Shown here one piece after another: positions 1 to 6,000 of a stretch of DNA of 7,135 bases. Position 1 is the stretch's first letter; every line of letters begins with the position of its first letter. The position numbers were made by a program. Source of the DNA: Escherichia coli (lineage in GTDB: Bacteria > Pseudomonadota > Gammaproteobacteria > Enterobacterales > Enterobacteriaceae); assembly GCF_003334255.1 (NCBI RefSeq), contig NZ_QOWU01000096.1; one strand, 5' to 3'.

Positions 1-3000
1 CTGGCGGTGCCTGTTGATAAGGCTGTTGAGCTTGTCAGGGATCGCAGTAAATTCGCGGAAATTTCGAAAAATTTCGGTTATTTCACGCCGAAGCAGGAGG
101 GGCTTTCTCTGAAAGATATTCAGAAAGAAGCCAGCCAGGTAGCAGCGGAAGCGATCAAGAACGGCGGTAATGCTCAGGCTGCGAGGGATGAATTTTTAGC
201 TGCGCATGGTTTACCGGAATATCAGCAGAAAATTCAGCAACAGAAATTTGAACAGCTTTTACAGAAGGGGCAGACCTGGGCGGAGGGCGATCCGGTCAAA
301 CTGGAGTTTGTCAAAGCGACTGCCGCCAATATGCCAGCCTTGCTGGAACCGGGGCGTGAAAAGGAACTGGAAATTTGGTACCAGAATCACCTCCGGGATA
401 AAAAAGCCGAACAGGAAAAAGCGAAGAATTATAGCGCTGCTGCATCAGCCGAAGAGATCAGAGGCTGGATGAAGTAAAGTTACGCGGCAGTAACGCGCTC
501 CCCGTTAATATCGTTCACTTACGCCCGACCATCGTGTCGGGCTTTTTTTTACTGGAGTCTGTATGGCTTTTTCAGATGAGCAGCGCCCTGAAGCGCAATT
601 GGGTAACCAGAACCGCAGCAGCCTGAACATTAAGCAGCCGGGAGAAAATTACTGGCAGGATTTTTTCAGCAACCCGCAGAATGCCATTGATCACAGCACA
701 TCGTTCAGCCTCGGTGATGTATTGCCAACAATGGGTAAAGGTTTCGCCCAGTCCGTCCGGGGAACAGGGGAGATGGTCCGTGGACTCGGTGATGGATTTG
801 TAAATAATCCTGTAAAAACGCTTGCCGGGTTGTCGTCTTTCATGACGGATGTTTACATGCCGCCTTCCTCCACGCAAAAGGAACTGGGCGCGCCACCTTC
901 TGTTGGAGATGCGATTAAAAACATTCCCGATGGAACAGGTAAAAACGCGGTCACTGATACTGTCGGTGAAGGTCTGAAAGCAACCGGTAAGGCAGTCAGT
1001 GATGGTGCCAAAGCCTCGGATGAATGGCTGACAGATCAGATGTCGCCGGGTGCTGTTCGTGCGCTGAACACGCCAATGAGTGAAGGCTATGATGATTCTG
1101 CGGTCTTGCTGACGAAGGGTGTAAACCTGATTGGTGCGCTTGTACCTGATCTGGTTGCTGGCGGTGTGGTTAGAAAGGTGGGACAGGTCGCACTGAAAAG
1201 AACGCTGACCGCCGGGCTGGAGAAAAAATACATCGCGGCAGGAGTGCAGCCGGAAAGAGCCACGGCACTGGCAGCAGAAGCTGTCGATAAAAAAATGACG
1301 GATTTCTTCCATGCGGGCCTGATCACCCATTCCACAGCCAGTGCACAGGGGCAGAGTGCAATGTCGGCAGCAGATGCTGTTCTTAATGCGGATTACGCTG
1401 AGCTGGCGCAGTCACCGAAATTTCAGCAGACGTTTTTGTCAATTGATGCAGATCCACAGCACGCACAGCTTACTGATCGCCAGAAAATGGACCTGGCAAA
1501 AGAGCGTGTTGCCGATGAGGTGCGCGCGCAGCTGGCAACCGATCCTGAATTGCTGGCTGTGAATGCCATGGCGGCAAAACTGGGTGACGCACAACTGTTT
1601 AATCTGGTGACACGAGGCACAGCGAAGACCGTTAAAAGCGGCATTGTCAGAAATGCCACGGAACAGGGCGTAATTAACGGGGCACAGAACGCCTATTCGC
1701 GCTATCAGGAAAACACGGCATTGCGTGAGACCGCCGGAATGGATGTGTCACCGTGGGAGGGCGTGGCTGACGCAACGATCGAAGGTGCAGCCTTTGGTGC
1801 TGCGATGGGGGCTCCATTCGGTGCGGTTGCCGGATATCGTGGCAGACGTCAGGCCGCAGAAGAAGCAGCCATGCGTGATGCTGAAACCGTGCAGCAGGAC
1901 GACGCAGCCCCGCAACCCGAACCGGTTGATCCGGTGGCACAGCATCGTGAATCCATGCAGGGGATGAATCGCGAGCAGCTTCTGGAACAGTATGCTGATG
2001 CGGATATGGCACATGAGGGAGACACGTCTGCCGTTCATCGCCGGGAAGCCGCCAGCCAGCTGTTGAATGAACTGGATGAACAGGCGAAGCGACAGGCGGT
2101 AATGGATGAGCTGAAGGCGAAGCCGCGCCCTGAACTGCTTGAGGAATACCGAAAACTCAGCCTGAAGGAAGGGCGTACTGATACTGAAGAGCAGCAGTTA
2201 CAGGCTATCCGTGATGTGCTTCGCCCTCAGCAGGAGGCCAGACCGGAGGCACAGCCACAGCCGGAAAATGCGGATGATGGCGACGGGAGTATTTACCCGA
2301 CGGTGCGGTTCCGCGATCCGGATGAAGTTCGTATTGAAATTAACGGGAGTGGTGCGTCCAGACCAGCAGAACGCATTGAAAAGGTGCGTCCGGACAACCG
2401 TTATTTCACGGATGAAAAAAGTGCTCTGGGGAGCGACGTTTTCCGCAATGCCAGCGCCACCGGCCTGAAACCGTCCGTAGTGAAGAAAGGCGAGAATCAG
2501 TATGCCGTTGAAATGGATAATCCTGCGTTCTCTGAAGATGTGGCAACGGAGACCATTAACACCCTGGCTGACGGAGAGCGTATTGCTGATGCTGAACCGA
2601 TGGAGCAGCCCGCGTTCATGCGTGACCCGCGATTCCGTGGTTTCACGGGGGATGATACAGAAGTGCAGGCCCGCCTTGCCCGTGGCAACGCGCCGACGGC
2701 AGAGGAGCTTGTACGTTCACAGATGGCTGAAGGTGATGCCGGTCCGACAGCACAGGAGTTAACTGAGCGTCCACGCCTTCCCGCTCCCGGCGATATTCAT
2801 CCCGGACAGGGATATCCGTTACCAGGAGAAGTGGCGCGTACGCCGGATGAAAATCAGGCCGGACGTGGTGGTCGTTTTACCACAACCGGTGAGGTGAAGG
2901 GCCAGAGTTTCCAGAAAGGACGTGCGCAGGCACCGGAAAATGCCGCTGGTCGCCAGGGGGAAATACTGGAGGGCGAACCGGTTCGTCGTGGTCTGCCGTC

Positions 3001-6000
3001 ACCGGATGAGCAGAACGCCACAGCACCAGTGCGTGAAGGACTTCCTGCACCTGAACAGCGTGGGGTTGATATGCCACATCCTGAATCACTCCCTCGTATG
3101 GTTCGTGACTCCCTTCCGGAACTGGCACAGCAGGCAGAAGCGCGCAGACAGACCGGGGATAATCGCCAGACCATAACCGATGTTCCGGATACTGAGGTGC
3201 CGGTGCCGGTGCCGGTAGATAAACCGAGCACTCACCAGCAGGCGCGTGGTGCAAAAATTGAAGACTTTGGCGAGGAGATTAAGGGCGCGGCAAAACACCG
3301 TTATGCACAGCTTGCCGAAACACTGGGTAAAACGCTGGAAGACAGGGATTATGCCACGCAGCCGCTGAGCAAACTGTTCCCGAAACCGGACTACGCAAAA
3401 CTGGCGAGCGAAGGGGCTGATGCTGACACCCTGGCAATGATAGCGCTGTATCGTAGCGATATTCCGGCGAAGACGAAACACAATACGGCTGGCTGGGGGG
3501 AGAGCGTAAAAAAAGTACGACACAGTGTATCGGAAATGCTGAACGGAACGGTCAGCGCGAAACGCCTCGCAGAATGGATGGAAGGCAGAATGCCCTCCCG
3601 TTACGCGGATACCTGGCAACTGTTACGCACTCTGCCACCCTCACAGATGGACAAGGCTTCTGCTTATCGGGTGGTATCGGGTGTGTATCAGGCGGCAGGA
3701 GGGAAGCGTTACGATCCGCCACAGAAACTTTATTCACTGCGCAATAAGGACAATAAGGGGACTAACCTCTTTTTCTCGGAAAGCAGGGATGAATTACTGA
3801 CAAAGGCGAAAGTCTGGTTTGCAGAGCTGGAGGAAAAGTCACAGGCGAAAGGAGATGAAAAAACGGCACCGTCACCGGATGACAAAATCCGCTTTGACGT
3901 TTACCGGAATACCCGCAGTGGCGATATTTTTATCGCTTATGGCAAAAACAAAATGCGGGTGAGAGGTGGCTTTAAGTCAGCCAGTGATGCGCGTAAGTAC
4001 ATTGATTCACATCGTGATGAGCTTGTTCGTCATGTGAAGGAGATGCGGGAGATTTCGCGTGAGGAGCAGCGTAACGCCACCAACCGCGATCGTACCGGAC
4101 CAGAACGCCGCAAGGGGGATGTTTCGCCGGAGCAGTTCAGTGATGCGTTTGGTTTTCGTGGTGTGCAGTTTGGTAATTATGTGGAAGGTCCGCGTCGTCA
4201 GGCTGATTTGAACCGGGCTTATGACTCGCTGCATGACCTGGCTGATGTGCTGAACGTGCCGACAAAAGCGCTTTCTCTGAACGGTCGTCTTGGGCTTGCT
4301 TTTGGTGCCCGTGGTAAGGGTAAGGCGGCGGCACACTATGAGCCGGGTGAGGTGGCAATCAACCTGACAAAAGGTAACGGACCGGGGGCGCTGGCCCACG
4401 AATGGTTCCATTCACTGGATAATTATTTTGGTCGTTATGATGTTTCCACTGACGGGAAGATCACGTCAGGTGGCGACTATATGACGGAAGCACAGCGTGC
4501 CGGGCGCGTATTTAAAGACGGCAGATATGTTGATGCGGAATATCCGGTACGTCAGGAGGTTTACGACGCGTTTAAAGGCGTGATGAAAGCGATCAACAGC
4601 AGTGACATGCCGCGTCGTTCAGCGCTTCTCGATGAGGTGCGCTCAAAACCGTACTGGTCAACGGATGTTGAAATGGCGGCGCGTGCCTTTGAGCGTTATG
4701 TTCAGGATAAAGCGCGTACGGCTGGCGTGGAGAATGATTATCTGGTCAATATCCGTAAGGCACCTGAGCACAACACAGATAACACCTGGGCTTATCCGAC
4801 GAATGCGGAACTGGATGGCGGTATTCGTGATGCATTCGATCACCTGTTCAGTACGCTGAAAACCCGTAAGACGGACAAGGGCGTTGCGTTTTATTCCCGT
4901 AAGGGCGTGACCCGCACACCTGAAGGCAATCTCATTTCGGATGTTAACCGCAGTGCGGAAGCCAAAGGCAGCCCGGTCCCGCAGGTTGAAGCGGTTGCCC
5001 GTGGCGTGATGAGTGGCATTAAGGACAGTGACCTGAAGGTCCGCGTGGTGAAGTCACAGAAAGAGGCTGAAGCGCTTGCGGGTGAATCGTTCGACGGTTA
5101 CGGCAGGGTGCATGCGTTCTATCGTCCGGATAAACGTGAAATTGTCCTGGTGGCGGATAACATCCCTGACGGGCGGACCGTTCGCGAGAAGTTACGTCAC
5201 GAGATTATTCACCATGCAATGGAGCATGTAGTCACGCCAGCGGAATATCAGACGATTATTAAGACCGTACTGAAAACCCGTGACAGTGATAACGCCACCA
5301 TCCGTGAAGCCTGGCGTAAGGTTGATGCGTCTTATGGTAAGGAATCACCGGAAGTGCAGGCGGGTGAATTTCTGGCACATATGGCGGAGAAACAGCCGAA
5401 TAAATTTGTGGCGGCGTGGGTGCGTGTTGTTGCCCTGGTCAAAGGGGTACTGCGTCGCACGGGGTTACTGAAGCCGACAGAGCTGAACGATATCAGACTT
5501 GTTCGCGAAACTATTCGCACGTTAGGCCAGCGTGTGCGGGAAGGTTACACGCCGCGTGAGGATGGCGCGGGCGCATCGTCTCAGTACTCCCGTAGTGGTA
5601 AACCTGATCCGTTCAAAGTGCCGGAAGGTGAGGGCGAGCGTTATCGTGATGACCTTGCCAGAATGATGAAGTCGTTACGTTCTGGTGCAATGACTGCAAA
5701 CATCGGGCGTACGCCGCCGGTATTGCGCCACCTTGGCGCACCAGATTTGCCGCTGGTTATCTCCCGCGACACTGTGCGGAAGGCAACCAATGGAGTGAAA
5801 CATGTGGTGCCAATGGATGTTATCGAGAGACTTCCTGAGCTGATGCACGATCCGGATGCAATTTACCGTTCCGCGACAGAAAGAAATGCGGTTGTGATGC
5901 TGCTTGATGCCGTGGATAAAAATGGTGATCCGGTGGTGTCGGCAGTGCACATGAAGGCAACAGATAAACGAATAGAAATTAACAAGGTGGCTTCTGTATA

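Follow-up and report, generated by a model that had tools for sequence, protein, structure and literature searches.

Does a short, perfect hexanucleotide repeat in the middle of a giant phage gene change in length between isolates, and what kind of protein segment carries it? The question is raised by a stretch of 7,135 nucleotides (nt) of Escherichia coli DNA (contig NZ_QOWU01000096.1, assembly GCF_003334255.1; this whole stretch is called the window), in which a first-pass annotation made from the sequence alone had placed at positions 2840-3240 a linker with degenerate peptide repeats and three copies of GTGCCG. The segment corresponds to amino acids (aa) 760-893 of a giant protein, whose gene begins in the window and whose close relatives are found in Shiga toxin (Stx)-converting phages. 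The repeat does vary in copy number, and we consider it likely that the segment links two domains flexibly, carries an (X-Pro)n hinge encoded by a microsatellite, and serves as a recombination junction as well.

Copy number of the GTGCCG repeat

The repeat, GTGCCGGTGCCGGTGCCG, consists of (GTGCCG)3 at 3197-3214 followed by GTA and encodes V879-P-V-P-V-P-V885 in the frame of the giant gene, the only long open frame, which confirms the VPVPVPV run initially proposed. Of 2,000 sequences simulated with a Markov model of the window, 0.05% contained a perfect three-copy hexamer, and 0.01 occurrences of the exact 18-mer are expected after dinucleotide shuffling.

Copies were counted in IMG/VR contigs and phage loci with a gapped pattern requiring exact flanks. 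Two copies were found 12 times in perfect form and four times with a point variant (GTGCCGATGCCG, VPMP), three copies in three records in addition to the window, and five copies in one (IMG/VR and phage records). A single copy is present in the E. coli chromosome 2012EL-2448 (L026). The sequence that immediately surrounds the repeat, which we call cassette form A, was identified in 107 of 5,426 complete E. coli genomes, in places of 201, 195 or 186 nt. About 94 of these 107 genomes fall in an identity band dominated by 195-nt (two-copy) places, four match at 99% or more, the band of the one 201-nt (three-copy) place among the matches listed, and at least three have a 186-nt place, the same length as in the one-copy locus of 2012EL-2448.

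The number of copies is therefore not identical throughout the homologues and strains compared. The linker varies in length between isolates through the repeat, with 1, 2, 3 or 5 copies between near-identical flanks, as the first-pass annotation had anticipated, and its expectation that a 6-nt unit would keep the frame also held, all observed variants leaving the open reading frame (ORF) open. At least four changes were counted between haplotypes differing at 7-11 of about 800 nt (three versus two copies twice, five versus two, and three versus one), and copy number is incongruent with the flanking haplotype.

A natural control is provided by the repeat-free cassette form B, which is carried by 344 E. 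coli genomes and is of constant length in those sampled. The nine distinct form B sequences of our sample, with up to about 40% of their residues differing, are all exactly 41 aa long, whereas form A is almost invariant in sequence and measures 33, 36, 38 or 42 aa. The constant length of form B against the variable length of form A strengthens the suggestion that slippage changes the repeat. Such copy-number change is real but ordinary biology.

Organisation of the segment

The zones described here were drawn by aligning phage and prophage sequences, members of the 90% clusters and relatives of ~50% identity. The 90%-cluster search returned mostly partial proteins from contigs of about 1 kb, which are usable for the forms of the cassette and not for their frequencies. 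Substitution rates are given as nonsynonymous (dN) and synonymous (dS) substitutions per site, and structures were predicted with AlphaFold2 (AF2). The features, all on the plus strand, are:

563-7135, plus strand: 5' 6.6 kb of the gene for a giant, putatively polyvalent protein (only long open frame; family and phage matches)
2609-2923, plus strand: conserved block, aa 683-787, PAFMRDPRFR ... RPRLPAPGDIHPGQGYPLPGEV ... AGRGGRFTTTGEVKGQSFQKGR (conservation, dN=0)
2924-3148, plus strand: proline-rich, semi-conserved linker zone 2, aa 788-862 (motifs, LP enrichment, AF2 coil)
3095-3157, plus strand: predicted isolated alpha-helix, aa 845-865, RMVRDSLPELAQQAEARRQTG, left anchor of the cassette (both AF2 runs)
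3149-3253, plus strand: hypervariable cassette form A, aa 863-897, QTGDNRQTITDVPDTE-(VP)n-VDKPSTHQQARGA (allele comparison)
3197-3214, plus strand: (GTGCCG)3 in-frame microsatellite encoding (Val-Pro)3 (Tandem Repeats Finder, 3.5 copies, 100% match)
3254-4147, plus strand: downstream mobile module, aa 898-1195, with the KIEDFGExIxGAxK motif, a helical domain and LPD5 (HMMER, AF2, Pfam)

The block aa 683-787 is kept both in relatives of ~50% identity and in partial proteins from Salmonella, and aa 721-780 have a dN of 0 with a dS of 0.14-0.19. Its tail (zone 1, aa 760-787, 84 nt at 2840-2923) had initially been counted as linker. The proposed extent of 2840-3240 therefore stands from nt 2924 onwards, but the first ~28 residues belong to the conserved block. 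Over its ~105 aa the block is under very strong purifying selection, yet AF2 predicts almost no structure for it, and it may hold motifs for binding or packaging.

Zone 2 contains three degenerate units of about 16 aa, namely P806-A821 PVRRGLPSPDEQNATA, P822-M837 PVREGLPAPEQRGVDM and P838-E853 PHPESLPRMVRDSLPE, encoded at 2978-3025, 3026-3073 and 3074-3121, with the motifs GLPSPDE, GLPAPE, SLPR and SLPE. The peptides quoted in the first-pass annotation (RRGLPSPDEQ, REGLPAPEQ and the last of these units) were all found in the translation. LP dipeptides are over-represented, with six of the 12 in the whole protein lying in aa 730-893 (shuffle P=0.0004), and the best internal self-alignment of the segment is of modest significance (P ~0.007-0.03). 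A repeat search at the DNA level found no trace of the peptide units, merely short two-copy families that are common by chance, and the units are therefore either ancient or maintained at the protein level. The motifs of zone 2 are retained in all alleles (as ELPAPE/ELPRPE in protein P0025), as is ELAQQAE. Zone 2 differs between genera in both sequence and length. Zones 2 and 3 together, zone 3 being the cassette, measure 106 aa in the window versus 84 aa in P0025, and dN/dS in zone 2 is 0.2-0.33 (gene mean 0.24).

The description of the segment as low-complexity and rich in proline, glutamate and glutamine is only partly adequate. Proline and glutamine are enriched (2.3-fold and 2.1-fold), but glutamate just 1.3-fold, and glycine and arginine are as abundant as glutamate (enrichment ~1.2-fold). 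Low complexity was overstated, the entropy being 3.4-3.6 bits per 40 aa versus 3.6-3.9 in the flanks. W, Y and C are absent from the segment, and bulky hydrophobic residues are scarce.

The cassette is the most variable part. At least four unrelated forms, of 33-59 aa, were distinguished: A, with (VP)n; B/B'; C, about 20 aa longer; and D, with a different downstream module. Form A is carried by the window, PhiR12_3, phage 86 and O104:H4-type prophages, and form B/B' by 933W, phi24B and Min27; most Stx phages hold an unrelated, repeat-free cassette. Form A and the 933W-type form B share about 50% nt identity with saturated synonymous sites (proportion of synonymous differences, pS, 0.70-0.79). 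This saturation, together with the unreliable alignment, makes dN/dS over the cassette uninterpretable, and it points to old alleles exchanged by recombination and not to recent rapid change.

Predicted structure

With a shallow alignment (14 sequences), AF2 gave coil at aa 760-844 with a predicted local distance difference test (pLDDT) score of 28-36, a weak helix at aa 845-864, and coil again at aa 865-908 (27-42), LPD5 scoring 66-85. With a deeper alignment of 41 sequences (mean column identity 24%) the module is predicted from about aa 910 at a pLDDT of 88-97, and aa 780-839 and aa 866-909, including the VP run, remain coil at 43-47 and 43-49, respectively. The helix at aa 845-865 rises from 50-54 in the shallow alignment to 63-72 in the deep one.

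AlphaFold thus gives low-confidence coil for the segment, and no confidently folded structure. The proposal of a plausible hinge agrees with a linker that is largely coil, but the middle part, with its conserved LPxP motifs and one predicted helix, is not featureless.

The downstream module and the junction

The limits of the neighbouring module were obtained from an exhaustive HMMER search with aa 520-1200 as query against 1.84 billion representative proteins. There were 720 matches, in which the module is found at positions 1 to 2,891 of the host proteins. The alignment starts at aa 885-905 in 71 of the 145 matches that reach LPD5, and before aa 788 in just seven. The first residues of seven free-standing proteins of ~550-610 aa align to aa 897-899, and the module therefore begins at K898 (KIEDFGE, nt 3254), thirteen bases beyond the end coordinate of the first-pass annotation. 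The LPD5-containing module is, on these alignments, a self-contained mobile unit that starts at KIEDFGE. The role of the segment as a connector between modules is well supported, with the upstream block ending at aa 787, the module starting at aa 897-899 and no family model covering the stretch between them; Pfam, PHROG-subdomain and NCBIfam have no model specific to it.

The 60 residues that precede the module in 123 distant giant proteins are unrelated in sequence, yet they contain 8.4% proline versus 4.8% overall, and 19% order-promoting residues versus 28.5% overall. Runs of at least three (XP) units were found upstream of the module in nine of the 123. It is therefore general for this module to be preceded by a proline-rich linker.

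No motif of the module is better conserved than KIEDFGExIxGAxKH (nt 3254-3310, aa 898-916), in which D, G, G, A and K do not vary across 41 diverse sequences. In the AF2 model it stays unpacked (pLDDT <50) before the first helix, and it may be a catalytic or docking element. A sequence search of the PDB with aa 520-1200 gave no match (best E=0.85), and Foldseek of the AF2 model against the PDB gave nothing significant for the downstream module (best E=0.41).

In sliding-identity comparisons phage 86 shares the cassette of the window (95-99%) and has a divergent downstream allele (55-82% over 3263-4000), while the 933W-type phages share the downstream allele (95-99%) and have a different cassette. 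Cassette and adjacent module thus reassort independently of each other, and the breakpoint where the module starts is sharp. In an E. coli partial protein (P0017), after ...SLPELAQQAENRR (ELAQQAE) an unrelated sequence without a PHROG match takes the place of the KIEDFGE module, a case of module replacement at the linker.

Further mosaic blocks, with 55-70% identity, lie at 563-1012, 3413-4000 and 5963-6112 in a gene otherwise 90-100% identical between phages. The whole gene, and not the linker alone, is a patchwork of recombined alleles.

The giant gene and its surroundings

The giant ORF is the sole long open frame of the window (frame +2), running from ATG 563, preceded by GGAG, past the 3' end. 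Identity of the window is 97% to the 2,789-aa coding sequence of Escherichia phage PhiR12_3 and 91-93% to 186 phage records, almost all from short-tailed Stx-converting phages (933W-type, phi24B, Min27, phage 86 and ArgO145). In these relatives the full-length protein has ~2,790 aa, and the gene lies at the end of the late region with conserved synteny.

Pfam recognised LPD5 at aa 1046-1195 (nt 3698-4147; E=2.8e-45), LPD1 at ~1356-1435 and MuF_C at ~1745-1834, NCBIfam a CLCA_X-like zincin around HEWFH (aa 1279-1283), and PHROGs a DarB-like C-terminal region, with a match to PHROG 616. As all of these occur within one phage-encoded ORF, its product can be classified, on domain content, as a probable polyvalent protein as Iyer et al. 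2017 use the term (PMC5512222). The phi24B orthologue, gp47, was found in virions by proteomics; it is absent from the cryo-electron microscopy maps of that phage and has been proposed to be an encapsidated ejection protein (bioRxiv 10.64898/2026.04.10.717836).

The same preprint assigns metallopeptidase activity to the MuF_C domain (bioRxiv 10.64898/2026.04.10.717836). Pfam describes MuF_C (aa ~1745-1834) merely as a phage MuF C-terminal domain, and the zincin motif HEWFH (nt 4397-4411) is located in the CLCA_X-like domain, with LPD5 on one side and LPD1 on the other.

A hairpin resembling an intrinsic terminator (517-551, GCCCGAC-CATCGT-GTCGGGC followed by T9) comes after the stop codon of the preceding gene (~477) and before the GGAG/ATG of the giant gene (554-565). 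Expression of the giant gene would therefore need either read-through, for example by Q-antiterminated late transcription, or a promoter of its own. In the phi24B record (L004, 3882-3920) the start of the giant ORF is annotated 13 codons upstream, inside this hairpin. All other records start at the equivalent of ATG 563, so the phi24B start was probably mis-called. In the Min27 record a frameshift divides the gene into ORF77 and ORF78.

Three records deposited as plasmids (NZ_CP133131.1, NZ_CP044141.1 and CP043018.1) also carry the giant gene. They measure 50-63 kb, the size of a phage genome, are typed as non-mobilizable, and are likely to be circularised or excised genomes of Stx-type phages. 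A second tandem repeat, imperfect (period 10, 2.4 copies, TATCGGGTGTG), was reported by Tandem Repeats Finder at 3665-3689 and is probably due to chance.

Proposed role of the linker and alternative explanations

We suggest that aa ~788-897 would form a largely unstructured, proline-rich chain joining the upstream conserved block to the module at K898, the last ~35 residues being a cassette under little sequence constraint that holds (Val-Pro)n in the allele of the window. Slipped-strand mispairing during replication would add or remove 6-nt units, each shifting the hinge by two residues with the frame kept, a change that is presumably tolerated. An (X-Pro)n run is expected to be extended and semi-rigid, and is probably a short stiff spacer separating the neighbouring modules, which would permit them to fold and unfold independently. 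Independent unfolding would matter for a protein of ~300 kDa that is packed in the capsid and presumably ejected, leaving via the tail. It is also at the linker that recombination reassorts the alleles of the flanking modules.

Some points weigh against this proposal. The three-copy array is short, so slippage rates should be low, and recombination in a mosaic gene could mimic recurrent copy-number change, part of the haplotype incongruence then coming from it and not from independent slippage. Low pLDDT is not proof of disorder, since the linker columns are without alignable information and the conserved KIEDFGE also scores low. FoldIndex called aa 441-940 unfolded, a result that we discarded because the folded LPD5 was scored unfolded as well. 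Moreover zone 2 is not free to drift, with LPxP motifs and the ELAQQAE helix in every allele and a dN/dS of 0.2-0.33, and it is therefore probably more than a spacer. The conserved motifs, the helix and the constrained upstream block indicate that the region is not a purely passive spacer.

One function that is compatible with a linker, and not exclusive of it, is proteolytic processing. The zincin-type peptidase of the protein itself (HEWFH), or another protease, could cut the exposed proline-rich stretch, perhaps at LPxP[DE], freeing the N-terminal part from the LPD5-zincin part. A CLCA_X-like zincin domain does lie downstream of the linker, the repeated LPxP motifs are conserved amid otherwise variable sequence, and Iyer et al. 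2017 propose autoproteolytic domain release in polyvalent proteins, citing the processing of P1 DdrB (PMC5512222). Nevertheless we regard processing as rather unlikely, as LPxP has not been linked to any protease of known specificity, polyvalent proteins are in some cases delivered at full length (PMC5512222), and the phi24B preprint reports processing for gp84 only and nothing for gp47 (bioRxiv 10.64898/2026.04.10.717836). It is also rather doubtful that the LPxP motifs and the upstream block are short linear motifs that bind a partner, such as the capsid interior or the portal during packaging or a host protein once ejected, making the region an interaction platform and not a spacer. The dN of 0 at aa 721-780 despite measurable dS, the conservation of the region in ~50%-identical relatives, the LP enrichment and the lack of a fold in AF2 would agree with this, but no partner is known, no described motif class was found to match, and the hypervariable cassette and the VP repeat, both of them outside the conserved motifs, are left unexplained. 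Unlikely, too, is a wider version in which the LPxP[DE] array and the unstructured block aa 683-787 serve as functional short linear motifs (for zincin autoprocessing, or docking for packaging or a host target) and the cassette between ELAQQAE and KIEDFGE is a dedicated recombination junction by which Stx phages exchange effector modules or vary an exposed epitope under host-defence pressure.

Diversifying selection on the cassette, for example to escape a host defence sensor, would make its forms and lengths adaptive. The presence of at least four unrelated forms between conserved anchors and the high amino-acid divergence within form B could be taken in its favour. However, synonymous sites are saturated too, as expected of old recombined alleles, the same mosaic divergence is seen in other blocks of the gene, and no defence system is known to sense the giant protein, which makes this explanation very unlikely. 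We give still less credence to a missed folded domain, a product of another frame or strand, or a structured RNA. Antisense ORFs of 125 aa and one plus-strand ORF of 84 aa overlap the segment, but they were rejected since their stops are gained and lost between alleles, while the frame of the giant ORF alone is open in all, with all indels being multiples of three in it. No Rfam family matched anywhere in the window. AF2 finds no fold in the region though the neighbouring module folds, and the region is not conserved in distant homologues, both of which argue against a missed domain. Least credible of all is a contingency locus that would switch expression on and off (phase variation). A perfect tandem repeat of variable copy number might suggest one, but this array is short (1-5 units) and lies mid-gene, neither in a promoter nor at the 5' end, and phase variation was rejected because the unit is of 6 nt and all observed variants are in frame. 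We therefore retain the flexible linker with its hinge microsatellite as the likely explanation.

Relation to known systems and significance

The orthologous proteins are gp47 of phi24B and the 933W-type LPD5/LPD38 domain-containing protein of the Sepvirinae Stx phages, with 91-93% nt identity, the same Pfam domains and a shared synteny, in which the giant gene follows lom and four or five small genes and closes the late region. They differ at the cassette, the window having form A with (VP)n and phi24B, the 933W-type phages and Min27 the repeat-free form B.

Hinges of the (X-Pro)n type are known from the Ala-Pro segment of E. coli OmpA, from the (Glu-Pro)/(Lys-Pro) repeats of TonB and from the Ala/Pro-rich linkers of pyruvate dehydrogenase E2. 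The segment described here appears analogous to these in having a short alternating X-Pro run between independently folding parts, expected to be extended and semi-rigid. It is unlike them in being Val-Pro, in having just 1-5 pairs and in belonging to an encapsidated phage protein. Like in-frame variable number tandem repeats (VNTRs), the array has perfect tandem units that are a multiple of three nucleotides long, and among close relatives its copy number is polymorphic and does not follow the flanking haplotypes; it is much shorter than the VNTRs typically used in typing and than the repetitive parts of surface proteins.

The likeness to polyvalent proteins lies in the giant multidomain architecture, with LPD domains, a zincin-like peptidase and a DarB-like C-terminal region, and modules in many orders and contexts (PMC5512222). 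The word 'linker' does not occur in the text of that paper (PMC5512222), and what is given here on the anatomy of the linker, on the forms of the cassette and on the polymorphism of the repeat is added detail and not a new class. Our literature search found no prior description of the linker or of the repeat polymorphism.

The understanding of linkers or of microsatellites in general is unchanged by these results, and their importance is modest. Combined with the number of (VP)n units, the form of the cassette (A, B or C) could be a cheap sub-typing marker for Stx prophages. What is gained is a residue-level map of one module junction in a virion protein of more than 2,700 aa from the most widespread Stx-converting phages, a giant protein whose organisation in the capsid and role at infection are questions raised by the phi24B structure paper. 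The start of the module at KIEDFGE and its independent reassortment should be useful for the design of constructs for structural and biochemical work.

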